The notes under the pieces: generated by a model
What the model was told of the DNA's origin: nothing
What the model saw: only the letters and a program-made list of their open reading frames with translations
Database searches by the model: none
Program-made: the position numbers and the translations under genes
In this document: in pieces, positions 1 to 25,282 of the stretch
Layout: every line of letters begins with the position of its first letter
Numbering within the stretch: position 1 is the stretch's first letter
From: a virus
Virus record (IMG/VR): IMGVR_UViG_3300025587_000227
Span: 1-25,282 of that record
Direction: 5' to 3' (one strand)
Length of the DNA: 25,282 nt

Positions 1-933
1 TCACTTGTCATAAACAGGACCCACTATCCCCCAACCAAGATGTTGGATACCCCTACTACAGCAGGGGGCCCCCAAGGGCCGGCCCGTCTTGGTGGCGCTG
101 ACATAGTCCCAGACTGTCCACCGTTCAGGGGGGAGACTGACGCTGGCCAATTCCTTCCCCGCGACGCGGAGGAAGTAATGCCCATACCACTTGTTGTCGT
201 TACATTTAACTTTAACGTGTTCTATGCGGACTGAATAGCCGAGTCCCTCGATAACTGGCTTGAAAAGTTGACAGGCGTCGGTGCAATTGATCCCATCAGT
301 CACCATCTTTTTAAGGGCTTCCCTGTTTGGTGTTTGGTCATTATAGTAGAATTTGTACTTACATCTCCTTGAGACGAGAGTGTAAAGCTGTGTGGCTGTT
401 TTGAATTCACCGAGAACCCTGCGCATCTCCCTGACCTCCTCAGGCACGGGTGGTTCAGGGGGAGTCACGTATACTATCCTTGGCTCCCTTCGGTTTTCTT
501 CAAGGAACTGATTATATCTCTTGCACATGTCTTTGAAGGTTTCTAACGATACGCTTGGGCCCCCACCTGAGTCGATGAACACTACCCTGGGTTCTCTCCC
601 ATTAACCTCCTTGAAGCGGTTGTACCTGCTTAACATGTCTTTAAATTGGGTTATGGATACATACTCTGGAGTGTTCTCATTAACCTCAGGCACGGGTGGT
701 TCAGGGGGAGTCACGTATACTATCCTTGGCTCCCTTCGGTTTTCTTCAAGGAACTGATTATATCTCTTGCACATGTCTTTGAAGGTTTCTAACGATACGC
801 TTGGGCCCCCACCTGAGTCGATGAACACTACCCTGGGTTCTCTCCCATTAACCTCCTTGAAGCGGTTGTACCTGCTTAACATGTCTTTAAATTGGGTTAT
901 GGATACATACTCTGGAGTGTTCTTATTAATCAT
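1..933 (-). CDS. peiP: Pseudomurein endoisopeptidase (endolysin): 4 pseudomurein-binding repeats plus transglutaminase-like Cys protease domain, 310 aa
   Basis: PMB repeats (FKDM..RY..F...N.REPR); triad motifs GINCTDACQ (Cys), WYGHY (His), VWDYVS (Asp). Start placed at ATG 933 after RBS GGAGGTGG rather than TTG 945. Confidence 0.95.
   Translation of the reverse strand: MINKNTPEYVSITQFKDMLSRYNRFKEVNGREPRVVFIDSGGGPSVSLETFKDMCKRYNQFLEENRREPRIVYVTPPEPPVPEVNENTPEYVSITQFKDMLSRYNRFKEVNGREPRVVFIDSGGGPSVSLETFKDMCKRYNQFLEENRREPRIVYVTPPEPPVPEEVREMRRVLGEFKTATQLYTLVSRRCKYKFYYNDQTPNREALKKMVTDGINCTDACQLFKPVIEGLGYSVRIEHVKVKCNDNKWYGHYFLRVAGKELASVSLPPERWTVWDYVSATKTGRPLGAPCCSRGIQHLGWGIVGPVYDK
438..929. repeat. 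Tandem 246-bp duplication in pei (438-683 and 684-929)
   Basis: Copies read identical except 678 (C) vs 924 (T); each encodes 82 aa = two PMB repeats. Confidence 0.95.
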
Positions 934-1094
934 GTCCACCTCCAAAAATTAGATTCATTAAACTCATCATTAATTTCAGTAATCACCCCTGACCCTGCGA
1001 AGTCCTCATCTCCAGTGTATTCATTCAGGAAATGGGTCAGAGAAAGTTGCCCATCACCATCCTCTGGGATCATAACCCTAAATTCACCAGCCAT
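930..1094 (-). CDS. Small acidic protein, 54 aa (MAGEFRVMIPEDGDGQLSLTHFLNEYTGDEDFAGSGVITEINDEFNESNFWRWT); not in the ORF track
   Basis: Fills the 934-1083 gap; GGTGG RBS; ATGA overlap with the pei start and 11-nt overlap with the upstream gene. Confidence 0.6.
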   Translation of the reverse strand: MAGEFRVMIPEDGDGQLSLTHFLNEYTGDEDFAGSGVITEINDEFNESNFWRWT

Positions 1095-1734
1095 ATACCG
1101 CCACCTTCCCGGTTAAAGTCCCATCACTCGATTTAATGTGGATTGAATCAACAGTAGAGGTTAAATCGTCCCAACGGCCATTCCAAACTCCCCAACGCGT
1201 GTAATCCCCACTAGTCATCGTGTTATCATTCACAGCAAACCGCCTCACTCCAGGTTTCAAGGTGATCAATACATGCCCAACGTTCATCGCTATCTCGTTA
1301 GCTTCGTCTCCTCCGGCGAAGAATGGATACTTAAAGGGCCATACACCCTTCCTGGTATGGCTCCCGTCACTGTCAACATGGTGCATGTGGCTGGTATAGT
1401 TCGACTTGTTATCATCATTGTTAAAGAGTATTCTGAAATGGCCCTCACCAGTGGACCATGTAACCCTCACCGCGTACTCGAGTTTAAGCACGTCTAAATC
1501 GGTTGGCACCTGGAAATTAAAGGAATGAATTGGCTCCTCAAAGTTGTAAAGCTTGAGGAGGCGCCAGTGACCACTGCTGCCGCCTCCACCGGAGCCGAGG
1601 TAAGGGCCGAGGTAATCTAGAAGGGCCTCCCTACCAAGAAACTCCAAGAGGGCCTCCCTATCAACCATGTGCTGATCATCATTCCAATCCCCCGCCGTCA
1701 CCGGGCCATTAATCTTCCGATTATGCCAGATCAT
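1084..1734 (-). CDS. Putative tail fibre / receptor-binding protein
   Basis: End of the tail module; N-terminal VTAGDWNDDQH anchor, Gly linker (GSGGGGSSG), beta-rich aromatic C-domain. Confidence 0.5.
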   Translation of the reverse strand: MIWHNRKINGPVTAGDWNDDQHMVDREALLEFLGREALLDYLGPYLGSGGGGSSGHWRLLKLYNFEEPIHSFNFQVPTDLDVLKLEYAVRVTWSTGEGHFRILFNNDDNKSNYTSHMHHVDSDGSHTRKGVWPFKYPFFAGGDEANEIAMNVGHVLITLKPGVRRFAVNDNTMTSGDYTRWGVWNGRWDDLTSTVDSIHIKSSDGTLTGKVAVYGW

Positions 1735-2348
1735 AGACTATGCACCCTCCAAACCAGTTGATCCACATACCCGTTACTTGGGATGATAAGTGAAAGTGTT
1801 GGTTTGTTCACAAAGTTGGTTGATTTCACATATTTCCCCGTCACTATCCTAACCCCTGAATCACTGTACACGGTACATGCCATTGTCAGTGAGGCGCCTC
1901 GAAGGTACCCCTCCAACCTGCCCCCTATCAAGGCATTGCCTTCAGATAATGAATCAGGAAGAAGGAATAGGGGGAGGCCCGCGCCACTCGTAGCACCATA
2001 ACTTGGCCCCGAGGCAGAAAGAAGGAAATATGACCCAGAATACCTCGACTCAGTACTATCACTATCCACCCGCAGATAAACAGGAGCATCATTCGAATCC
2101 GTCCTCTTTCCCTGACATTTGAACTCAATGAGGAACTCTGAGGGGAGACTCGTATGAGTATAATTCATATTGACAGTGTACTCACCACTTATCGCCGTCT
2201 CAGACCCCGCCCCCGTCCGGGGGATCTGCAGACAATACTGGGACATGAAGACATCCATATCTTCAATGGCATGTTCATCATTCCAGTCATCACCAGTCAC
2301 CTGATGCTCCTGAGAAGCAACAGCCTTATGATACACTCTGAAAACCAA
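1731..2348 (-). CDS. Putative tail fibre / receptor-binding protein (paralogous N-terminus)
   Basis: N-terminal VTGDDWNDEH motif shared with 1084-1734; ATGA coupling; beta-rich. Confidence 0.5.
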   Translation of the reverse strand: MVFRVYHKAVASQEHQVTGDDWNDEHAIEDMDVFMSQYCLQIPRTGAGSETAISGEYTVNMNYTHTSLPSEFLIEFKCQGKRTDSNDAPVYLRVDSDSTESRYSGSYFLLSASGPSYGATSGAGLPLFLLPDSLSEGNALIGGRLEGYLRGASLTMACTVYSDSGVRIVTGKYVKSTNFVNKPTLSLIIPSNGYVDQLVWRVHSL

Positions 2349-2363
2349 ACTAACACCCCATTT

Positions 2364-3389
2364 CTATCTCCTACCAAACAAGTAATTCACAACTCCTGTG
2401 ATGATTGTTGCGGTGGTGAATCTTATATCACCATCTATAGACCCCCGTATATGTGTCCTGAGAGCTCCACCCATGAACTCGTACTCCACTTCTGTCACGA
2501 TGAACCTTCTCCGCAGGGGGTCTTCGGGGATGATTATATGATCCCCTACCTTACAATCGAAGTATCCCTCCACTACGCATTCAACTTCACTGTTGGGCCT
2601 CTTGGCCTTCTCTGATACTCTCGGGTTCTCACGGAGTGGATCTTTATCATCATTAACTTTATCAAAGAGACCCCCTGGACTAGTAGGGGAGCCATCAGAG
2701 ACTTTCTCCTCTTCTAGTGGGGGGTTGCGGCCCGCGACGGGCCCCCCACTATGACTTGGCCCGTAATCCGTATACTTCGGCCCCGCTGATGGGAGTGGTG
2801 TGGGGTTCCTGTTACCCCACTCGGGAGTCTCATACTCCGACTCATCAAATAATGGGAAGGGGACGCCCCCACCACCAGGCGGCCCAACCTTATACAATTT
2901 CACAGTTGAGACACTGAACACAGGCCCTGACCTTGCAGATGACCAGTACTTCATGATAACAGACCGATCCTTCCTCCCATAGCCCTTCGAGTCGATCACA
3001 AGTGCTTTGATCTCCGCATCCCAATCAGCATAAAAATAGCCGTAATAATACCATGCTACGGTCCAGATCCCGGCAGTAGCCGAGGGTCTGCCCCCCTGCG
3101 CCATCACAGACGCACCCTTACTCGAAACCCCGATTGGTTCGCTGAAATCAGGGACCTCAATCACCATGTAACGCCAGTCCTCCACCGGTTTAGAAGTGAA
3201 GGCGAATTTTGCAGCGGAGGCCCCTGGATCAGTGAATGGGGAGTACGCGACTGTCTTCTTCCTTGTCCACCCTAAAGCCCAACCCAGCTCGACGCTCCCA
3301 TCATCACCTTCAAGGAATTGTATAGTTGGATCCTTAATGGGGACGCGGTACCATCCCCTGTTTTCCTGAAGCCATTTATCAGACACCAC
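2364..3389 (-). CDS. Tail-tip/baseplate hub protein, C-terminal part with inserted beta domain and Pro/Gly linker
   Basis: C-terminus VEGYFDCKVGDHIII...FIVTEVEYEF...THI resembles the end of gp27/GpD-like hub proteins; GTG start directly after the upstream TAG. Confidence 0.5.
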   Translation of the reverse strand: MVSDKWLQENRGWYRVPIKDPTIQFLEGDDGSVELGWALGWTRKKTVAYSPFTDPGASAAKFAFTSKPVEDWRYMVIEVPDFSEPIGVSSKGASVMAQGGRPSATAGIWTVAWYYYGYFYADWDAEIKALVIDSKGYGRKDRSVIMKYWSSARSGPVFSVSTVKLYKVGPPGGGGVPFPLFDESEYETPEWGNRNPTPLPSAGPKYTDYGPSHSGGPVAGRNPPLEEEKVSDGSPTSPGGLFDKVNDDKDPLRENPRVSEKAKRPNSEVECVVEGYFDCKVGDHIIIPEDPLRRRFIVTEVEYEFMGGALRTHIRGSIDGDIRFTTATIITGVVNYLFGRR

Positions 3390-4088
3390 CTAATAGACCA
3401 CCCGTAAGTTTTCAAGTGACTCAACAACTTCAGTTGCGTCCTCTGTGATTTTTAATGATTTTAGGAGGTTAGGGTTGACCTCGAAACCCGCATTACCCTT
3501 GCATCCGATGTACATCATTTTCCCATGCAGAACCCAAAACAGGTCCCGACCGGTTTCCTCCATTAAGTTTTGAATCAGGTCATTCCATGTCACCGTGATT
3601 ACCTTCACATCATCTTTTGTCTCCACCATCCCATGAAATGGGTGCAACTTCATGAAGGTTTCCAGGGAGGATTTCCCTGGTTGAACCATGGTTCCATAGA
3701 GGTAACTCGCCCCTGCATTAACCCGTGACTGTGCAGGGATGCAGGAGTGGGGGTGTAATGTGATCCCACAGGACTGCAGGAACCGGAGGAGGACAACCCC
3801 CCATGAGTGAAACTCCTGCTCCTTAAAGGTGTAAGAGTATTGCATGAGGCGATTATGTATTGGTGAGGAGATCGCCCGGCAATTAGATGTCATACTACCA
3901 TAATCGAGGGTGACATGATTCACATACCCCTCAAAGATTTTCTTATCATCATCGGAGATTACACTTACAGAGTACCCCACACGCACCTCCTCATGGGTGG
4001 AGAATGTGGCCTTCGCAACAGAGTTGATCATGTGATTCACGCTTAACCCTGTCACCGGGACTTCCCGGTTGTTCACCAGGATCTTCAC
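3390..4088 (-). CDS. Tail-tip/baseplate hub protein (Tal/gp27-like), N-terminal part
   Basis: MKILVNNREV...ATF...IFEGYV pattern typical of hub N-termini; position after tape measure and Dit-like genes. Confidence 0.55.
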   Translation of the reverse strand: MKILVNNREVPVTGLSVNHMINSVAKATFSTHEEVRVGYSVSVISDDDKKIFEGYVNHVTLDYGSMTSNCRAISSPIHNRLMQYSYTFKEQEFHSWGVVLLRFLQSCGITLHPHSCIPAQSRVNAGASYLYGTMVQPGKSSLETFMKLHPFHGMVETKDDVKVITVTWNDLIQNLMEETGRDLFWVLHGKMMYIGCKGNAGFEVNPNLLKSLKITEDATEVVESLENLRVVY

Positions 4089-4870
4089 CGGATCACCCCC
4101 TTCAATAGGAAGTAATCCGTGACTATCGTGGCCTCCTCCCAGGACACATCCACAGTCAAATGTGGTGACTGTGACTTCAACCAGTCATAATTCATGATGC
4201 GGCCAGGATCCACAGGGACACTGAACCCCGTATAGATGAAGCCCATCCACCTATCCCCGGGGTTCCTCAAGTAGGCCCGTATCTTCCATTCATCCCCGGA
4301 TCCCTTCTTCAACCAGATCCAGGGGATGAACCGCTTATCCCCTGCTATACCCCCATCAAGTGTTAGTGGTTCTATGAGGATATCCTCATAGTCAAACCTG
4401 CTCTTCCGTGGGGGGTTGGGGAGGTTGAAATCGATGATCCACTCCTCATGACTGACGCGTGCTGGCACGGGTATCTCCGCACGGTAATTCACGGGGTATC
4501 CGGGGGAGGCTGTTCCTGACTTGTTAGTGGCGGTGGCCAGGATTATGAACTGGAAGGGGCCGGTGCATGGTGGCTGCAGCGTGTACTCTACCATCACCTC
4601 ATCCCCGGGTATGATCTTGTCAGGGAGGCGGGGCTCCTCAAAGGTTAGGGAGGACATCATTAGCTCATTCATCCATGACTGTTTCTCACTGAAGGAGGCG
4701 AAGGGATCCTGGGCCGGCATGATTAGGAGGTCCTCAATGACCTCATCCCCTGTGTTTTTTAGGATAGCGTAGCCCTTGATTGTGTCACCACGCCGGGCTA
4801 CTATGAACTCCTCCTCCAGGTCAACCCACCCGCGGCCGCCGAACTCTATGAACCTGAAATCCATCACCAT
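4085..4870 (-). CDS. Tail-tip protein with Ig-like (CARDB-like) segment
   Basis: GDTIKGYAILKNTGD...PGDEVMVEYTL Ig-like pattern; start moved to ATG 4870 after RBS GGAGTGA. Confidence 0.45.
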   Translation of the reverse strand: MVMDFRFIEFGGRGWVDLEEEFIVARRGDTIKGYAILKNTGDEVIEDLLIMPAQDPFASFSEKQSWMNELMMSSLTFEEPRLPDKIIPGDEVMVEYTLQPPCTGPFQFIILATATNKSGTASPGYPVNYRAEIPVPARVSHEEWIIDFNLPNPPRKSRFDYEDILIEPLTLDGGIAGDKRFIPWIWLKKGSGDEWKIRAYLRNPGDRWMGFIYTGFSVPVDPGRIMNYDWLKSQSPHLTVDVSWEEATIVTDYFLLKGVIR

Positions 4871-10016: not shown

Positions 10017-10730
10017 CTATTCTTTAGGAAGAATCAGTTTTGGTGTTTCGGCGACGGTCATCTCCAGGTCGAATGTCAAGTTATCACCTGCCTTCGCGGC
10101 GGGGAGGCTGGGGGACATTTTCACGTTCTCAAAGTATATCCTTCCAAGTGTTTCATCCGCAACGTGAAACGTCATGTAACCGTAGAGATTCAGTGGCTTG
10201 TCCATGAGCCTGTACACTGACTCTGATGTTTCTGATGATTCCTCATAGAACATGAGCTTCCTGAACTGTTCAAGCCCATTCGCACTGAGTATCTGATCTG
10301 ACTTTATCGTTATTGTCATACCAGCGTATGCTGTGAGCTTCGCAGCATTGTTCAGTATACTGACTTCCTTAGTATCCTGCTTAATATCAACGGTGACCCC
10401 CTGCGCCAGGAAGGGTTCCAGTTCCTCCACATAACTAGCCGTCACGGTGGTCTCTGATCCACCTGTTTCAAAACCAACCGCTCGTCCTTCATCATCCTCA
10501 ATTATGTCAGTCACGGTAACGGTTGACCCGTCACTGTCACTAGTAACCGTCACATCCTCAGGTTTCACGCTAAGCGAATTACATGACCGGGGGAAGATCG
10601 GGGGATTCTTTACCATGAATTCCCCTGTCCCAGTTATATTTTCACCAGTAATGGGTATCCCAAGGAAAAACCCAACATTTTCACCTGTAAGTATAGTTTC
10701 TGCCAGTTTATCCACCAGCATATATATCAC
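10017..10730 (-). CDS. Major tail (tube) protein
   Basis: Acidic, beta-rich 237 aa after the terminator gene; ends with tube-like LPAAKAGDNLTFDLEMT. Confidence 0.75.
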   Translation of the reverse strand: MIYMLVDKLAETILTGENVGFFLGIPITGENITGTGEFMVKNPPIFPRSCNSLSVKPEDVTVTSDSDGSTVTVTDIIEDDEGRAVGFETGGSETTVTASYVEELEPFLAQGVTVDIKQDTKEVSILNNAAKLTAYAGMTITIKSDQILSANGLEQFRKLMFYEESSETSESVYRLMDKPLNLYGYMTFHVADETLGRIYFENVKMSPSLPAAKAGDNLTFDLEMTVAETPKLILPKE

Positions 10731-14985: not shown

Positions 14986-16578
14986 TCACAATCCCTCCCA
15001 TTCAATCACCTTGAGGAGGTATGATTTCATCCTCTCCGTCATATCATCCAGGGTGAGGTCTATGAGTCTTTTATACTTCCCCTCAAGGCCCCCTGATGGG
15101 AGGGTTATCTGACCATGTGCCACCCCAGAGGGGACCTGTGCTGGGATAAGCCTGTAAGCGTAAGCCCTCGCATCATCCTTGAACTCTTCAAGGATAGTAG
15201 TGACTGCAGCGCCTTTAGCATCTGATGGTTGTTGTGACCTGAGAACATCTTCTATCTTCCCGGAGTATTTGGTCTTGAAGAGTTTCTCGAGTCTCTGCCT
15301 GATCCTATCAGTGCCTGGTGGTTCCTGGGACTTCAGGCTCCTCAGTCTTTTCCCTGATACACTCCCAGCATTAGGGGATAACTTGTTGTACACCTCCTCG
15401 GGTGATAAGACGCCGTAGTGGATGAGGCTGCAGTAGTTGTTCACTATACTGGATTCGAGTAGTGTTTCATCATTGAACTCGAATATCACATCGGATGAGA
15501 ATTTGATCTGGAAGAAGTCAGTGAGGATTGAAGCGATGATCTTCTGCTGGGGCCTCACCACAGATTCGTAGTACGTCTTCCTCGTCGATTCTGCGAGGTT
15601 CCCCCCGAGGGCCCCTATGTCCCCTATCCCTAACCTGTACGGGTCGATCATATGGGCCGCTGCAACATCAAACTTTTTATCATGATAGTACTGTTTAAAG
15701 TCCGCGTCATCCATTGACTTGTTGAGGGGGGTGAATTCCACCTTCACCGTGTCATTTCCTGGGATGCTGAGGACTATCGGACTGTGGGGGTTCTCCTTAA
15801 GGTATGTGAAGTTCTCCTCGATGGCCTTCTGCAAAACCGTCCGGCCGGTGGGGTTCCCTTCACTGTCAAGTATCTCCTCATCCTCAAAGTCGCCCGTCAC
15901 TGTGATGACATAGGATGGGAGGGTGAAATTATCGAAGAATGCATAATTGTATTCGTCTATCTTTTTCATGGTGAGGATGCTGTTCACTGCTGAAAGGTAC
16001 TTCGGGACCCCGTAGTAGCTGCAGATGGGTGAGGGGAGATGGATGAAGAGGAGTTCATTCGCACCCACACCACCCCCCTCGAGGTCCTCCCCGGTCTCAG
16101 GGTTTACTTCACCTTCATGCCTGTAATCCTTGAAATAAGTGACATGCACACCATCCCATGTCTGCTTGTACCTTGTCCCGTCCCTGTGCACCCGGACGGT
16201 GTGTGCCGGGACATACTCAAAACGGACAGGCTCACCATCATCATCCCGGACTATCTCAAGGCTGCAGTAATTGAAGACTTGAAGGTCCTCAATGCTGGAT
16301 AAGAGGACGTACTCGAAGCTGGGCTTGCAGGCCTTCAGGAATCCTTCAACCCTCCCATCATCATTCGTGAGTGTGTATCCTGTTCTCACGATATCGTTAG
16401 TCTTAATCGTGCAGGCGGCGGCATGGTATGGGTTGCTGTTCAGGAGTTGGAGCAAGTATAGGGGATGTACCCGTGGCTCAACATAATCCCCTACTGACTC
16501 CTCTTTCAGGCTCTGTGAGGGGAATGGCTGATACTTTTCAAGTGACTTGACTGATGATAAATATTCTCTCATAATCAT
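14986..16578 (-). CDS. Portal protein
   Basis: 530 aa after TerL; YYGVPKY, F(D)NF..PS..I, VAAAHMIDPYRLG portal-like motifs. Confidence 0.9.
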   Translation of the reverse strand: MIMREYLSSVKSLEKYQPFPSQSLKEESVGDYVEPRVHPLYLLQLLNSNPYHAAACTIKTNDIVRTGYTLTNDDGRVEGFLKACKPSFEYVLLSSIEDLQVFNYCSLEIVRDDDGEPVRFEYVPAHTVRVHRDGTRYKQTWDGVHVTYFKDYRHEGEVNPETGEDLEGGGVGANELLFIHLPSPICSYYGVPKYLSAVNSILTMKKIDEYNYAFFDNFTLPSYVITVTGDFEDEEILDSEGNPTGRTVLQKAIEENFTYLKENPHSPIVLSIPGNDTVKVEFTPLNKSMDDADFKQYYHDKKFDVAAAHMIDPYRLGIGDIGALGGNLAESTRKTYYESVVRPQQKIIASILTDFFQIKFSSDVIFEFNDETLLESSIVNNYCSLIHYGVLSPEEVYNKLSPNAGSVSGKRLRSLKSQEPPGTDRIRQRLEKLFKTKYSGKIEDVLRSQQPSDAKGAAVTTILEEFKDDARAYAYRLIPAQVPSGVAHGQITLPSGGLEGKYKRLIDLTLDDMTERMKSYLLKVIEWEGL

Positions 16579-17882
16579 GTTCTCACTCCTCTGGGACTGG
16601 AGATGTATATCCTCCTGTTCCTCATGGATGCCTCAGTAAGGGTATTAAAGGCCCCTGATGCAGCGTCCACCTGGTCATCATGCACCCCCTGTGTGGGGAA
16701 GGCCTCCAGTTCTCTGAGGAAATCATAGACCCATATGCCCCGGAGGATTGTCACGTTCCCGGCTTCTACTTGTGCGCTGAAAGCTCTGGCCCGTTCCACT
16801 TTGTTCCTGGTGGGCCTGTCCCCTTTGATGTCATATCCCTTGAGGAGGCGTGTGAAATGGTTGATGATCATTTTCCCACTACTCCCCCCTTCCTCCTCGA
16901 TTCTTATCATCGTACCTTTCCCATCCTCGTGGGCTGTCTGGATTATGGTTTCCTCAACCTCCTTCGGGGTTCCCCTCAGCCGCTTAACGTCCAGGATGTG
17001 ATATGTGTCATCCTGGAGTCCCATAAGGCACCCTACTGTCCAGTCAGGGTCCGTGTTCATCTGGGTTGGGGGCGTGGCTGCAAGGTCCCAGTACCTACAT
17101 TTCAACTGCACTGATGGGGGGTTGTCTATGATCCTAAACCATTCCCTCCTAAAGAGACCTCCTGTGATTGAAGCATCCCAGTCCCCCTCCATCAGTTGCC
17201 TCCTTGTGATCGGATCCAGCTTCTTAAGCGATTCTTCGTAGGATACGTCCAAATGGGGGTTGTCCTTGTACCTGGCGGGGATAAATGGTCGGCCACCTTC
17301 AATGAATCGTTTCCTGACCCATTCGAGACCGGGCCCGGTGGGGTTGGTGGCGGCGCGCATCCGGAGAGGTACAGGGTTTTCCCCGGTTTTCCTGAGGCGG
17401 CTGAACAGGAAAAGGTACTGTGACTCTGTGAACTCTGTAAGCTCGTCGAAAGCAACAAGTTGAAATTCGCTGGACTGGTAACGGTACTTGTCACGCTCTG
17501 AATCTATATGGCCAAATGTGAGGGTGGCGCCTGATGGGAACCTCCATGTCTTCTTCTCCGCGTTCCACTCAGCATCAGTACTGTGGAGCCACTGGCACGC
17601 GCGGTCCATCAGGCCCCCAGGAAGAGCTAATTCCGGGTAATTCCGTCTGAGCACCAATGCATGATAATCAGGGAGGTCCACATATTGGAGCGCTGCCATG
17701 AGGAGAGCCTCGGATTTCCCTCCTCCTGCCGCGCCGCCATAAAGAACCTCCCGGTCATGAGAGGTGAGAAATATGGCTTGTTTGGGGGTAGGCTCAGTGG
17801 GGATGTATGGGTTTTCAAGGACGCTCCAACGTAAGAAATCAAGATCCTCCTCAGATAGTCTTTTATTTGTCGTTGAAAGCAC
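16575..17882 (-). CDS. terL: Terminase large subunit
   Basis: Walker A GGAAGGGKS, Walker B VAFDELTEF, ATNP coupling motif, nuclease motifs WDLAAT and HDDQVDA. Confidence 0.95.
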   Translation of the reverse strand: MLSTTNKRLSEEDLDFLRWSVLENPYIPTEPTPKQAIFLTSHDREVLYGGAAGGGKSEALLMAALQYVDLPDYHALVLRRNYPELALPGGLMDRACQWLHSTDAEWNAEKKTWRFPSGATLTFGHIDSERDKYRYQSSEFQLVAFDELTEFTESQYLFLFSRLRKTGENPVPLRMRAATNPTGPGLEWVRKRFIEGGRPFIPARYKDNPHLDVSYEESLKKLDPITRRQLMEGDWDASITGGLFRREWFRIIDNPPSVQLKCRYWDLAATPPTQMNTDPDWTVGCLMGLQDDTYHILDVKRLRGTPKEVEETIIQTAHEDGKGTMIRIEEEGGSSGKMIINHFTRLLKGYDIKGDRPTRNKVERARAFSAQVEAGNVTILRGIWVYDFLRELEAFPTQGVHDDQVDAASGAFNTLTEASMRNRRIYISSPRGVRT

Positions 17883-18411
17883 CTACCTCAGCCTCCCTTA
17901 ATCTTTTGAGGTATTCTTGGATCTTACGGGCCCTTTCCTCTCTTTCCCTCTTGGCGGATTCAGCATCCGCCACCTCAAGGCTCACCCTGTTCACATCTTC
18001 ACCCTGAGCCGTCCGTAGGACCTCCTGGGCATTTTTCAGAGCGGTGGCCGTGTTTGACAACTCGATGGCCCTGATAAATCTTTTTTCATTGATATCCTGG
18101 TCCATCTGGGTGATCTTCTTCATGATCACCTCGGTCAAGGACATGGCTGTCTGTTCAAAAATCATGTCAGCTTTCACCATATCCTCAGCCACAGACTCGG
18201 CACGTGCATCCATGATCTTCTCTTGGAGTTTCAGCTGTGCTTTTTCCCTTTGTTTAGACCAGGACTCCCTTCGCGCCCTACTTTTCACAGTGCCCAGGGG
18301 GATGTTGTGCTTCTCAGCCAGCTTGCCGAGTGAAGGGTACTCCCTCTGACCAGTTTCATCCATGTGCCCGTAGATATACTCGTCACGGATCTTGTCCCAA
18401 TCGTATTTCAT
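17863..18411 (-). CDS. terS: Terminase small subunit (start ATG 18411, or TTG 18432)
   Basis: N-terminal HTH (YDWDKIRDEY...SLGKLAEKHNIPLGTVKSRARRESW) plus helical oligomerisation region, directly upstream of terL. Confidence 0.8.
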   Translation of the reverse strand: MKYDWDKIRDEYIYGHMDETGQREYPSLGKLAEKHNIPLGTVKSRARRESWSKQREKAQLKLQEKIMDARAESVAEDMVKADMIFEQTAMSLTEVIMKKITQMDQDINEKRFIRAIELSNTATALKNAQEVLRTAQGEDVNRVSLEVADAESAKREREERARKIQEYLKRLREAEVGAFNDK

Positions 18412-18557
18412 TTTTGCGTCCCCTGGATTCAAAATAGATTCATAATGGAGTCATCCACGGATGCATTACAGTAAGAGGGGGGGTTGTAAAGGAGGTGAAA
18501 ATAGGAGGTTAAGACATGATTTTTCATCCCCACTCTTTTCCCTGTGCATCAGGATGG

Positions 18558-18788
18558 TTATGGAGGGTGGAGTATCATGTAAGTTGCAATAGGGATCAAG
18601 ATTGTCGTCATGAAAAATAGTAGTAGCTTAAGATATGTTTTGAGGACTGCTATGTCCTCCTGTATAGTAGATATGCGCTTCAGGAAGTCTTTGTATTCAT
18701 ATAATTCATTTTCTATTAGTTTTATTCTTTCCTGGAGTATTGTGATTTCTTTTTCTTTGTCACATTTGTATGTCTCCTTTATCATCAT
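18558..18788 (-). CDS. Coiled-coil plus C-terminal TM protein (XhlA/holin-like)
   Basis: Heptad-rich N-terminus then LLLFFMTTILIPIATYMIL; poly-G RBS. Confidence 0.6.
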   Translation of the reverse strand: MMIKETYKCDKEKEITILQERIKLIENELYEYKDFLKRISTIQEDIAVLKTYLKLLLFFMTTILIPIATYMILHPP

Positions 18789-18804
18789 CCCCCCATCTTA
18801 GGGA

Positions 18805-18951
18805 TCATCCCCCCCTCTTGTGGGTTAGGTACCCTGCAATTGCGCCGAGTGCTACTGATGCTATTTCAGTCATGTTTTTTGTCATGGCTGTTATTGTGAT
18901 GATTGTGAGGCATATGATCCCTATTGTTTCCACTCCCAGGTTGTCTTTCAT
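18805..18951 (-). CDS. 48-aa two-TM protein, holin-like (MKDNLGVETIGIICLTIITITAMTKNMTEIASVALGAIAGYLTHKRGG); not in the ORF track
   Basis: RBS AGGGGGA, two hydrophobic segments, basic C-terminus; first gene of the late minus-strand block. Confidence 0.7.
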   Translation of the reverse strand: MKDNLGVETIGIICLTIITITAMTKNMTEIASVALGAIAGYLTHKRGG

Positions 18952-18961
18952 AGTATCCCCC

Positions 18962-18979
18962 TTTCAATAATTATTGTAA
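18962..18979. promoter_or_regulatory. Palindrome TT-T-CAATAATTATTG-T-AA, candidate operator before the late block
   Basis: Perfect 12-bp palindrome at 18965-18976 with extra paired flanks, in the divergent intergenic region. Confidence 0.4.
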
Positions 18980-19056
18980 CATAGTCATGATGTATGTAAT
19001 AGTTCATGGAGATTATTGCAAAAGTAATATGGTCTCTGCAGTTGTGATGTTTCATT

Positions 19057-19440
19057 ATGGATGCAACATTTAATGCATCTGATATGAAAGAGTGGAGAAT
19101 GGCGCAGTACTACTTCTTCATTGAACTCGTCAAGCATGATCTCCATCTCTCCAGGACAGATGTTATGGAGGTGATGGAAATAGTGCGGCGAGTTGGCCTG
19201 AAAGAGTTGCATCGGAATGCCAGTATGGAACAGATAATCCTCTCATTATGCTTGTATGTGAAAGAAAAAAATGGGGTGAAAATCCCAATCGAGAGGTACA
19301 AGCTGATGAATGAGTATAATGTAACCTACAAGTTGTACAGTCGTGTCCTCTTGAACCTCCTACGGTTCCAGGTGAGGAGGATGCCACTTGTGAGAGTGGT
19401 GAAATGGACAGAGAATACAACATATTCAAGTGCAAAATAG
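19057..19440 (+). CDS. Single cyclin-fold repeat resembling the TFB/TFIIB core
   Basis: LHLSRTDVMEVMEI...KELHRNASMEQIILSLCLY aligns by eye with the TFB repeat pattern L.LP...EEA..L...K.L.RGRS.E.V.AA.VY. Confidence 0.6.
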   Translation: MDATFNASDMKEWRMAQYYFFIELVKHDLHLSRTDVMEVMEIVRRVGLKELHRNASMEQIILSLCLYVKEKNGVKIPIERYKLMNEYNVTYKLYSRVLLNLLRFQVRRMPLVRVVKWTENTTYSSAK

Positions 19441-19619
19441 AAGATACGCTTCACATCCTCCTTGGGGCAGAGGAGGCTTGTGTGGAGTGTGGGTGCAGGT
19501 CCCTGGAGCTTGATAAGGAGTATCATTTGTTCTGCAAGGGGTGTGGTCTTGTCCTTGCAGCTGTTGATCCATATGTGGCTGGGATGAGGATTGACCTACC
19601 ATTTGGCCTGTTAATTTAA
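19404..19619 (+). CDS. TFIIB-type Zn-ribbon protein
   Basis: CVECG-x14-CKGCGLVL spacing and CGLV motif of the TFB N-terminal ribbon. Confidence 0.75.
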   Translation: MDREYNIFKCKIEDTLHILLGAEEACVECGCRSLELDKEYHLFCKGCGLVLAAVDPYVAGMRIDLPFGLLI

Positions 19620-19720
19620 CCATGTATATAGAATGATTTCAAGTGTAATGAGAAAGAGAATAATTTGACCCATGTATATATATATATATCAAAATTTTTT
19701 TTGTATATATATATATACAA
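19620..19720. repeat. AT-rich element: CCATGTATATA x2, two (TA)7 tracts, T-tract, 20-bp perfect palindrome
   Basis: CCATGTATATA at 19620 and 19670; (TA)7 at 19675-19688 and 19704-19717; TTGTATATATATATATACAA at 19701-19720. Confidence 0.85.
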
Positions 19721-19759
19721 GGGGTGAGGGGTTGTCTCCCCCAATACTCCTGAAGTTCA

Positions 19760-20269
19760 TTATTTAGATACATATACACTATTATAATACTCTATCAGAT
19801 CATCCACATTCACCCCTTTCACCCGTGCGGCCACCTGGTACACATCCTCCCCAGTGTCAAAGACCAGGTCATCCGCACTGACTAGTCCTCTCTCCTGGAC
19901 TCTTTCCATGATGAATTCACAGGCTTCATCTAACCGCATCACCTCTGCATCCACCACCTCTGTCTTTGGCGGGGAATGTAACAGTTTAATTTTCTCTTCG
20001 CACTCCTCAATCTCTACCCTCAACTCCTCCTTACGTAGTTCAAGGCCCTGAATCTTCTGGTCAATGGATCTTATCTCATCCTTTGCCCTGATTATCCTCC
20101 TCTTCAGACGGGATGTTTCTTCTATGATGTGTGCTTCTGATTCTAATGTACCCCCCTCAACGAGGACTTTATAGCCTGCCTTGATTAGGTCTGGGAGGGT
20201 TAAGCCTTTCCTCCTCGCGTCCTCGTGAAGTTTTTCATCTACTCTAACAGTTGTTAATTTCATGTTCAT
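19760..20269 (-). CDS. RHH (CopG/CcdA-like) domain plus coiled coil
   Basis: TTVRVDEKLHEDARRKGLTLPDLIKAG, followed by a long heptad segment. Confidence 0.65.
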   Translation of the reverse strand: MNMKLTTVRVDEKLHEDARRKGLTLPDLIKAGYKVLVEGGTLESEAHIIEETSRLKRRIIRAKDEIRSIDQKIQGLELRKEELRVEIEECEEKIKLLHSPPKTEVVDAEVMRLDEACEFIMERVQERGLVSADDLVFDTGEDVYQVAARVKGVNVDDLIEYYNSVYVSK

Positions 20270-20510
20270 CCCGAAGTTTGTAAGTGGTTACCTTGTGTTG
20301 GTAGGTGTTCTCTTTTTCCCCAACCCCCTTAGCTACGACACGTACCTGAAAGAGGATGGACTGGCGTGTGGGGTTGTATTTCCTACTGAACTCATACCTT
20401 TTCCCAAGGTTGCCGATGATCTCTTCAAGTGTGAGTTCAGCATCCTCATCTTCCAGGACCTTTATGATGGCTTCTCTGAGATCCTTCCTCCCTTTTATTT
20501 TCATGATCAT
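20244..20510 (-). CDS. Winged-helix DNA-binding protein
   Basis: LREAIIKVLEDEDAELTLEEII...PTRQSI...TTYKL. Confidence 0.6.
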   Translation of the reverse strand: MIMKIKGRKDLREAIIKVLEDEDAELTLEEIIGNLGKRYEFSRKYNPTRQSILFQVRVVAKGVGEKENTYQHKVTTYKLRDEHEINNC

Positions 20511-24052: not shown

Positions 24053-25261
24053 TTATCTTTCAAGTTTTTCCAGTATCTCCGGATGAGACGATATAAGATT
24101 ATACAACTTCTCAGTCTTCCTCACCCACTCTCTTAACTTCTCCTGAGACTCACGCAATTCTTTAATCTCATTCTCCTTCTCTTCCAGTTCTTTCACAATC
24201 TCACGAACCTCAGGGGCCATTACTCGTCTTGTAACAGTCTTCTCAAAAGTCAAAGATCGCATCCTTTTTCTGTATTCTCTTTCAAGGTGATCTATATTCA
24301 CTTTGAAATACGCCTCTGTGACTGGATTCACTTTATGACCAAGCAGCCAATCAATTGCCAGCTTATCCATTCCCTCCTTATAAAGGATGGTCGTGAAAAG
24401 CTTCCTAAGTTTGTGGGAAGTTAAACGACGATTACCCGCTGCATCCCTTCCAAGATAGAATCTGTCATTAAGACGATTGAAAATGTTAGCATAAGTGATC
24501 GGTTTGAGTCTATCTCCATTTTGAGTTGAAAATAGAGGCTGAGTCTCTTTTAAAGGTCCTCCATTTAATCGACGGTACCTTAGATAGTCAAGGATTTTTA
24601 TATTAGCCTCAGGAGTGCTGAAAGTAACATATGGCATTCCTGTCTTTACTCTATTTACCTTCCAAACTCCAACAATCTCTTCATCTTGTATGCGTTTTCT
24701 GGCATCCTCATAATCCTCTCCGAGGACATTGAAACCTATGGCCTTATTATAATCAACAACATTGAGTCTTCGAAGTTCCGCGGATCCCATCCCACTGGTG
24801 AGGTGCAGGAGGATCATGGCTTTTTCCCGTGGATGGGTGTTGTCCAGGACATTTTTGATCTCATGGAGATTTATAAGATCATCCATGGATTTATTTTCAG
24901 GTCGAATTTTGTATGTGATCTTTGGGGGGTCAATCTCATATTCATTGTATAGTGCTTTGATTTTGGAGATGTATAATCTGATAGTTGATCCTTTGACCCC
25001 CTGGTCTTGTAGGTGTTGAATGTATTTTAGGAAATATTGTCTGATCTTGCGTTTTCTTCTTTTAACCCCTGAATCTTCCTCTTTTTCCGCTTCTTCTATT
25101 AATTCTGTGATTGTTTTTCCTGTGACTTGTGAGTAGTGTTGTATTGCTGCAATGTATGTCTCTATAGTTTTTTCTTTTATGTTCCTGGAAAATATGAATT
25201 CTTGTAGGAGAGGGTCTTGGAGAAGTTCTTCTTTTGTTGGGTGTGTTTTCTTGGTGGGCAT
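24053..25261 (-). CDS. int: Tyrosine recombinase / integrase with C-terminal coiled coil (start ATG 25261, or 25282)
   Basis: N-terminal SAM-like domain (TIETY...Y), RVKTG Lys, SHKLRK (HxxR), LGH, AYF Tyr; box I reads SGMGSAEL. Confidence 0.92.
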   Translation of the reverse strand: MPTKKTHPTKEELLQDPLLQEFIFSRNIKEKTIETYIAAIQHYSQVTGKTITELIEEAEKEEDSGVKRRKRKIRQYFLKYIQHLQDQGVKGSTIRLYISKIKALYNEYEIDPPKITYKIRPENKSMDDLINLHEIKNVLDNTHPREKAMILLHLTSGMGSAELRRLNVVDYNKAIGFNVLGEDYEDARKRIQDEEIVGVWKVNRVKTGMPYVTFSTPEANIKILDYLRYRRLNGGPLKETQPLFSTQNGDRLKPITYANIFNRLNDRFYLGRDAAGNRRLTSHKLRKLFTTILYKEGMDKLAIDWLLGHKVNPVTEAYFKVNIDHLEREYRKRMRSLTFEKTVTRRVMAPEVREIVKELEEKENEIKELRESQEKLREWVRKTEKLYNLISSHPEILEKLER

Positions 25262-25282
25262 GGATGGTATGTATACTCGCAT

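Follow-up and report, generated by a model that had tools for sequence, protein, structure and literature searches.

A TFB-like zinc-ribbon and cyclin-domain gene pair, inverted in one lineage of psiM2-like methanogen viruses, as a possible split transcription initiation factor

The locus and the junction of the two genes

The stretch of DNA analysed in this work (the window) is the IMG/VR provirus record IMGVR_UViG_3300025587_000227, 25,282 bases in length, which is called here a psiM2-like tailed provirus of a methanogen. Nearly all of the credible genes of the window lie on its minus strand. On the plus strand are two overlapping genes, gene A (19057-19440), which starts with ATG and encodes 127 amino acids, and gene B (19404-19619), which also starts with ATG and encodes 71 amino acids. 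The late block lies on one side of this pair. Its first gene, on the minus strand, encodes a 48-amino-acid protein with two transmembrane (TM) segments (18805-18951), which was identified by tblastn to the relatives L011/L012 and L030 and from ORF lists, and whose homologue follows B in psiM2-type genomes. It is followed on the same strand by an ORF7-like gene for a TM/coiled-coil protein (18558-18788), by TerS (17863-18432) and by TerL (16575-17882), and the portal and structural genes are also located on this side. The early/regulatory side includes a 169-amino-acid ORF (19760-20269) and the integrase gene, which encodes a tyrosine recombinase at the end of the provirus (24053-25282), both on the minus strand, as well as genes for HTH proteins and small early genes. 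Since all credible neighbours are on the minus strand, with early genes on one side and late genes on the other, the pair is divergent from the late genes and is located at the border of the two blocks, as had been proposed in a preliminary description of this DNA.

A blastn search with the region 18500-20500 against phage records gave no match, and relatives of this region were therefore detectable at the protein level only. Contigs from RNA libraries (two metatranscriptome libraries of one digester study) span A and B, although DNA carry-over is possible and the strand, ends and level of a transcript are not readable from them; two further RNA libraries gave coverage of the TerS/ORF7 region only.

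Genes A and B overlap by 37 nt (19404-19440), B being in the -1 frame of A (347 nt offset), and A terminates with GCA AAA TAG (19432-19440). The ORF coordinates thus agree with the preliminary description in the lengths of both ORFs, their overlap, the frame of B and the end of A. It had further been suggested that a -1 slip at the end of A could fuse the two products. Such a programmed slip on A AAA TAG (19434-19440), which would yield a chain with the cyclin domain first and the ribbon second, is mechanically possible, because a P-site tRNA-Lys could move from AAA to AAA with the stop codon in the A site and would enter the B frame at residue 12. The same junction is also retained in a closely related contig (L003). 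However, the junction takes four types across the relatives and the window: in psiM2-type genomes it reads VRG-TAG-AGC-GTG/ATG, with B in the same frame at a distance of stop plus 3 nt; in psiM100-type genomes it is an ATGA overlap; in L007 it is TGA-ATA-TTG, again in the same frame; and in L003 it is the 37-nt overlap of the window. The junctions of the psiM2 group, the psiM100 group and L007 fit no single recoding event, and this variation among relatives indicates that there is no conserved recoding signal. Furthermore, B has its own start, which lines up with the starts of its relatives and has a purine-rich leader, and a GGTGA Shine-Dalgarno-like motif is located directly 5' of its ATG. 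A slip would remove conserved N-terminal residues of B. In addition, a ribbon is found before the A domain in 24 of the 108 proteins of the A family and after it in none. A fusion by frameshifting is therefore very improbable. The 37-nt overlap results from the last 13 codons of A, which extend past the stop of the psiM2/psiM100 homologues, and we read it as ordinary tight coupling of two genes.

Conservation of the pair and its inversion

By sequence, gene A is a homologue of ORF6 of psiM2 and psiM100, to which it is 47-50% identical (tblastn). It matches the family phrog_30657 with an E-value of 8.4e-36 (residues 6-113 on profile positions 9-117 of 118), and an exhaustive profile search yielded 107 relatives at E <= 1e-3. 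Gene B matches, with 43-52% identity, an unannotated ORF in psiM2 (3736-3948) and in the psiM100 record (10510-10728). The arrangement of A followed by B is present in at least nine lineages of tailed methanogen viruses that are psiM2-like or related to these, the carriers being the window and L003, psiM2, psiM100, L010, L011/L012, L025, L027, L030, L032 and L033. The two genes are adjacent, with A first, in 9/9 IMG/VR relatives. When the contigs of six distant single-domain relatives of A were inspected, a B-family ribbon ORF of 52-72 amino acids was found after A in five (L025, L027, L030, L032 and L033), in 4/5 of which the gene caller had left it uncalled; the sixth contig (L024) is too short for the presence of B to be judged. 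A ribbon gene of 50-70 amino acids was likewise overlooked by gene callers in psiM2 and psiM100, as in L025, L027, L032 and L033. Wherever the flank suffices, the pair sits upstream of the small TM, TerS and TerL genes. Judged by these sequence comparisons, A and B are both real genes.

The relatives range from 30% to 50% in G+C content, and several of them have TerL or the portal in common with psiM2-like viruses. A Methanothermobacter MAG/provirus fragment with psiM2-like late genes (L036) carries an unrelated gene of 219 amino acids in the place of the pair, indicating that the module is dispensable or replaceable, and thus common rather than obligatory. Further searches for carriers yielded little: besides this one Methanothermobacter MAG fragment, a TerL scan returned many bacterial prophage terminases; a scan of a genome collection with the A profile found no provirus; and word-based protein searches returned only the clusters of the window itself.

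The orientation of the pair in the window differs from that in other lineages, a point that was absent from the preliminary description. In psiM2, psiM100, five other IMG/VR relatives, L025 and L030, the pair is co-directional with TerL, and an inverted pair was found only in the window and in L003, an IMG/VR contig that is 97% identical to it and comes from another sample. Because L003 has the same inverted layout, the inversion did not arise from faulty assembly of a single sample. The divergent orientation is thus a lineage-specific inversion. Two promoter-like elements are located around the start of the pair. A BRE/TATA-like element, GCAAAAGTAATATGGTCTCTGC (19018-19039, plus strand), whose last base is 18 nt upstream of the ATG (19057), aligns with AAAGTTTTATAGTCT(A/C)TGC, which precedes the start at the corresponding alignment position in psiM2- and psiM100-type relatives, and we infer that GCAAAAGTAATATGGTCTCTGC may be the promoter of A. 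On the minus strand, 5' of the first late gene, alignment revealed a late-promoter-like element consisting of GACTATGTTACA and AATAATTATTGAAAGG (18960-18986), of which there is one exact copy in the window. In psiM2-type relatives, GACTAYGTYACA followed by an AT-rich box is conserved before the small TM gene, which in those genomes comes after gene B, and this conservation suggests a putative late-promoter role for the element at 18960-18986. A motif enrichment analysis of the window showed no enrichment of TTACATACAT or GACTAYGTYACA. The inversion took the promoter-like element of A along, and since the late element was retained, the two are now back to back in a divergent spacer of 105 bp.

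The right side of the inverted segment is marked by an AT-rich palindrome (19672-19720), which was identified by inverted repeats and an RNA fold z of -3.45 and consists of a T8 run (19695-19702) with a (TA)7 tract on either side. It separates the ends of B and of the 169-amino-acid ORF of the minus strand, which converge here. Oligo-T is an archaeal transcription termination signal, and this palindrome is a plausible candidate for the terminator of an A-B transcript. Rfam gave only sub-threshold chance matches to it. We also considered that the opposite orientation might reflect an invertible DNA switch, in which a site-specific recombinase flips the module on or off, since the module runs opposite to that of every other lineage and a tyrosine recombinase gene is present in the provirus. 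However, this recombinase is a typical integrase at the end of the provirus, no inverted repeats flank 19018-19619, the contigs show no joints or alternative forms, and L003 has the same orientation in another sample. A switch is therefore extremely improbable, and the lack of flanking inverted repeats gives the inversion the appearance of a fixed rearrangement. The inverted, divergent arrangement of the module, together with its own promoter-like element, fits a diffusible factor whose action would be independent of co-transcription with the late genes.

Likeness of the two proteins to TFB

The product of gene A was modelled with AlphaFold2 (AF2) on an alignment of eight sequences. The model is a single domain (residues about 4-108 of 127) with five helices, and the pLDDT is 86-92 over residues 11-110. 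It gave a cyclin fold for 19057-19440, the absence of which the preliminary description had named as evidence against its proposal of a TFB-like pair. When the model was compared with the PDB by Foldseek, 13 of the best 16 rows were TFB/TFIIB and the remainder were Brf proteins (Brf1 and Brf2), with probabilities of 0.97-1.0 and TM scores of 0.60-0.63 but an E-value of only 0.1; the first row was the TFB of P. woesei (1d3u_B, probability 1.0, TM 0.60). By VIA-align, without the Foldseek prefilter, human TFIIB came first (Z 10.8) and cyclin C was tied with it (Z 10.1). In every TFB, TFIIB and Brf chain, residues about 6-108 of A fall on the first cyclin repeat with Z of 9-10.9, namely on residues 105-205 of human TFIIB, 113-218 of yeast TFIIB, 71-172 of Brf1, 64-163 of Brf2 and 1100-1200 of P. 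woesei TFB, the last alignment (1d3u_B) having a Z of 9.9, an rmsd of 3.2, 100 aligned residues and 19% identity. A VIA Z of about 10 can be reached by helical models through their arrangement alone and is not decisive by itself. Those named clusters of the ESM Atlas that are nearest to A carry PF00382, and one neighbour is a Methanobacteriota family of 206 amino acids with both PF08271 and PF00382 (TM 0.58). The K.L.R..S.E motif named in the preliminary description corresponds to KELHRNASME in A.

Sequence models did not detect this likeness. PF00382 had no match to A at E <= 10, none to 30 relatives of A at E <= 0.01 and none in a six-frame search of the window, and a Pfam search with A returned nothing. 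The NCBIfam models, including those for TFB, did not match A, its relatives or B, and when HMM profiles of the A family were run against the PDB sequences, no TFIIB chain was obtained, but only chance matches (a cytokine receptor and SarZ). Because the sequence models fail, the link of A to TFB rests on the predicted structure, on language-model features and on the domain fusion described below. On this combined evidence, the assignment of A as one cyclin domain like the first repeat of TFB/TFIIB is supported as a prediction, in agreement with the preliminary description. A second cyclin repeat was found neither in the models of A and B nor encoded nearby (ORF list and six-frame search with PF00382).

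Gene B was predicted to encode an N-terminal helix, a TFIIB-type ribbon of the form CxxC-x14-CxxC (Cys 26, 29, 44 and 47) and a C-terminal tail, PYVAGxRIDLPFGLLI. The four cysteines, a CGLV motif and the tail (PY[VT]AGxR[IL]xLPxGLL) are kept across nine B sequences. PF08271, the zinc-binding domain of TFIIB, matches B with 21.5 bits and an E-value of 1.7e-4, which is below the Pfam cut-off of 29, and it is the best Pfam family in 8/8 members tested, at about 1e-4 and with a sub-gathering score in each case. A profile built from diverse B sequences and run against all PDB sequences gave the TFB ribbon of P. furiosus (1pft_A) as the best match (E = 4.9e-4), with ribosomal ribbons behind it. The AF2 model of B has a pLDDT of 60, which is low confidence, and consists of the helix, a three-stranded ribbon and a disordered tail; the best Foldseek rows for this low-confidence model were the ribbons of Brf1 and TFIIB, with eL43 intermixed. 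That B carries a TFIIB-type zinc ribbon, as first noticed from the letters of the window, is thus supported, with a Pfam score below the cut-off. The conserved tail of 20 residues that follows the ribbon is disordered in AF2 and the structural alignments of A begin at the first cyclin helix; a B-reader or B-linker was not recognisable in A or B.

The strongest single argument for kinship to TFB is the fusion of a ribbon to A in relatives. Among the 108 proteins of the A family, 73 are single-domain; a CxxC..CxxC is located N-terminally in 24 and C-terminally in none. In four of the fused proteins (P0029, P0064, P0073 and P0099), the N-terminal ribbon scores above Pfam's own cut-off for PF08271. 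The B family aligns with the ribbon of P0029 by hhalign with a probability of 91.5% and an E-value of 8.8e-7, and the language-model neighbours of this protein are PF00382 clusters. The existence of chains in which a ribbon, a linker and A follow one another in TFB order suggests that A and B belong together and that both are tied to TFB. The gene for P0029 is located upstream of TerL with one small gene in between, and the gene for another fused protein (P0032, on L034) lies apart from packaging genes, among early-type genes that include a histone gene.

These results also bear on whether the likeness to TFB might be superficial. In that case, A would be a helical or cyclin-like protein and B a zinc-ribbon protein, both of a generic kind, with another role near the packaging genes, for example in DNA binding, as an accessory to the terminase or, in connection with the small TM genes, in the timing of lysis. 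The silence of the TFIIB-repeat sequence model on A, a VIA Z of a size that arrangement alone can give to helical models, the scores of ribosomal and other ribbons near those of TFB for B, and the constant vicinity of TM-protein and terminase genes are all consistent with such a view. However, the Foldseek list for A is dominated by TFB, TFIIB and Brf, the named neighbours in the ESM Atlas carry PF00382, and the 24 fusions, four of them with a ribbon above the PF08271 cut-off, reproduce the exact domain order of TFB. We therefore consider a superficial likeness quite unlikely.

A proposed role in transcription initiation

In TFIIB and TFB, the ribbon binds the dock of RNA polymerase, the first repeat makes contact with the wall and, downstream of the TATA box, with TBP/DNA, and the second repeat reads the BRE. 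The family of archaeal TFB and eukaryotic TFIIB, with Brf1, Brf2 and Rrn7 (a PF08271 ribbon and two PF00382 repeats; structures 1pft, 1ais, 1d3u, 4bbs and 7o4i), resembles the pair in several respects. The ribbon of B follows the TFIIB pattern C-P-x-C-G ... C-x-x-C-G-L-V, the cyclin domain of A superposes on the first repeat of TFB/TFIIB and Brf, and in the fused relatives of A the ribbon precedes the cyclin domain as it does in TFB. In contrast, TFB is one polypeptide with an N-terminal ribbon, while the pair consists of two separately started ORFs, with that for the cyclin domain in front, so that the genes stand in the opposite order to the domains of TFB, as the preliminary description had also stated. 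TFB has two PF00382 repeats and the pair has one, and hence lacks the BRE-reading helix-turn-helix; TFB has a B-reader and B-linker, whereas none is recognisable in the pair, and the PF00382 model is silent on A. Moreover, TFB and TFIIB are cellular and the pair is viral. The pair is therefore not a true TFB, having one repeat and no recognisable reader or linker and being split. By the predicted domains, it appears to keep the parts for contact with the dock and with the wall and TBP, without the part that reads the BRE.

The pair probably acts on the transcription start machinery of the host. We propose, with a probability of roughly 0.55, that A and B are two subunits of a virus-encoded split "mini-TFB" that works in trans with TBP, TFB and RNA polymerase of the host and favours viral late promoters. 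In this model, A and B would associate, perhaps via the conserved C-terminal tail of B; the ribbon of B would bind the polymerase dock, and A would take the place of the first TFB repeat at the polymerase wall and, immediately downstream of the TATA box, at TBP/DNA. Working in trans on initiation complexes at viral promoters, the two proteins would most likely switch on the late operon, whose conserved promoter-like element adjoins their genes. Since the pair has neither a second, BRE-reading repeat nor a recognisable B-reader or B-linker, it would probably act alongside TBP and TFB of the host rather than replace TFB, comparably to TFB3 of Sulfolobus. No evidence emerged for the cooperation with the histone-fold pair that the preliminary description had thought possible.

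The same domain content could also make the split mini-TFB an antagonist, which would occupy the dock and wall, or TBP, block host TFB and thereby shut down host or viral early transcription. The ribbon and the first repeat, through which TFB binds polymerase and TBP, are retained in the pair, it has no second repeat or recognisable reader/linker, which are needed for BRE reading and DNA opening, and a viral partial mimic of TFB is known, the RIP protein of ATV, which imitates the B-linker (PMC9501531). However, the conserved place of the pair before the late operon and next to a late-promoter-like element resembles that of the late activators of tailed phages, and a general block would be of little benefit to a provirus that depends on the host polymerase. 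Neither argument decides the matter. We regard an antagonist as a possible but rather doubtful alternative. A two-subunit initiation factor that replaces host TFB at late promoters, a reading that overlaps with action in trans, seems to us unlikely. For such a factor, the ribbon subunit would recruit polymerase and the single-repeat subunit would read, together with TBP, GACTAYGTYACA at the position where a BRE would be. If this replacement were true, the pair would correspond, in archaea, to the late sigma of phage T4, which is likewise split, and the inversion would have created a compact divergent pair of a regulator and its target promoter.

Comparison with known systems places the proposed mini-TFB among other cut-down or virus-borne initiation factors. 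TFB3 of Sulfolobus/Saccharolobus is reportedly, from work of 2009 and later, a truncated paralogue of TFB that works in trans together with TFB1. Like the pair, it is cut down, keeps a ribbon without full promoter-binding capacity and would act beside a full-length TFB; it differs in being cellular, a single chain and without a cyclin core. In the viral pair, one repeat is retained, on a protein of its own. The late sigma of phage T4 consists of two proteins, gp55 and gp33, and the late activators RinA and ArpU are encoded just upstream of terS in phages of Gram-positive bacteria. The resemblance of the pair to gp55/gp33 and to RinA/ArpU is an analogy of logic only, in that a cut-down or split initiation factor stands at the head of the late genes; these proteins belong to the bacterial sigma system and have no homology to the pair. 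TFB homologues have been reported in Italian rudiviruses (vTFB) and in Asgard viruses and mobile genetic elements, and a redirection of host polymerase was proposed for them (PMC9501531; bioRxiv 10.1101/2021.07.29.453957). As in the pair, a TFB-family gene is thus carried by an archaeal virus. By their descriptions, those proteins are set apart as TFB homologues, whereas the pair is split, has a single repeat and is unseen by sequence models, and, unlike them, it belongs to tailed viruses of pseudomurein-type methanogens. In the literature, we found no connection drawn between TFB and either psiM2 ORF6 or the ribbon ORF; a recent psiM2 preprint, a taxonomy paper on archaeal Caudoviricetes and the MSTV1 paper make no mention of TFB, ORF6 or a zinc-ribbon/cyclin pair.

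To our knowledge, the timing of late genes in archaeal viruses is largely unknown, and we know of no virus-made basal initiation factor that has been characterised in archaea. The module described here occurs in psiM2, a cultivated virus of Methanothermobacter marburgensis, where it has gone unrecognised since 1998, and the ribbon gene is absent from the annotation of both the psiM2 and the psiM100 record. A purified in vitro transcription system exists for the genus Methanothermobacter, and since psiM2 is cultivated, the question is directly testable. The window adds a clear test of the frameshift idea and, as a new feature, the inverted pair with its own promoter-like element, an arrangement that is limited to the lineage of the window; if this element is indeed the promoter of A, the inversion can be taken to show that the module is an independent transcription unit. 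Furthermore, a factor in two pieces with one repeat would be a natural dissection of TFB, which may indicate which of its parts suffice to engage polymerase and TBP.

Divergent spacer and palindrome flanking the A-B pair

The 105-bp divergent spacer of the window contains two promoter-like elements arranged back to back, one on the minus strand (18960-18986), heading the late genes, and the other on the plus strand (19018-19039), heading gene A, which encodes the single cyclin-fold protein. Both elements are conserved and recognisable in psiM2-type relatives, in which they are co-directional. In the RNA library X7, the assembled contigs, which carry no strand information, end at 18991 and restart at 19077, leaving a gap (18992-19076) at the divergent spacer, and in a second RNA library from the same study the assembly breaks at 18881/18958. 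These breaks near the spacer hint no more than weakly that the two sides are transcribed separately.

Downstream of gene B, which encodes the zinc-ribbon protein, a long AT-rich palindrome (19672-19720), in which two (TA)7 tracts flank a T8 run, is located where gene B and a 169-aa minus-strand ORF converge, in the interval separating their 3' ends. The RNA fold z-score of this palindrome was -3.45, and a bidirectional terminator is one of several roles that it may have.

Small genes absent from the reference annotations

Homologs of gene B that are absent from the reference annotation are located at 3736-3948 in psiM2 (NC_001902) and at 3824-4042 of the psiM100 locus, corresponding to 10510-10728 in NC_002628. 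Located 3' of each zinc-ribbon gene is a small ORF with two TM segments, also absent from the record annotation, inside 3960-4178 in psiM2 and at 4121-4267 of the psiM100 locus.

Gene content and kinship of the relatives

A gene for a histone-fold protein (PF00125/PF00808; 3533-3742) is present in L034, the viral contig that carries the fused mini-TFB P0032, and histone-fold genes were likewise noted in the window, from sequence alone, in the preliminary description. L025, a 38.9-kb psiM2-like viral contig whose TerL is 56% identical to that of the window, contains type IV CRISPR-Cas-like genes (807-3520; Csf1 and RAMP, both weak, and Csf3). These precede its A-B pair by a few genes, among them genes for an MTase and a PAPS reductase. 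In L036, a contig from a Methanothermobacter sp. MAG, the small TM, ORF7, TerS, and TerL genes are all psiM2-like, and an unrelated 219-aa ORF (594-1253) occupies the expected position of the A-B pair.

In its N-terminal half, the psiM2-type large terminase shares approximately 45-51% identity with prophage terminases of Pirellulaceae/Planctomycetota genomes (genome-contig matches, L038-L061). Such a close similarity is unusual between viruses of archaea and viruses of bacteria.
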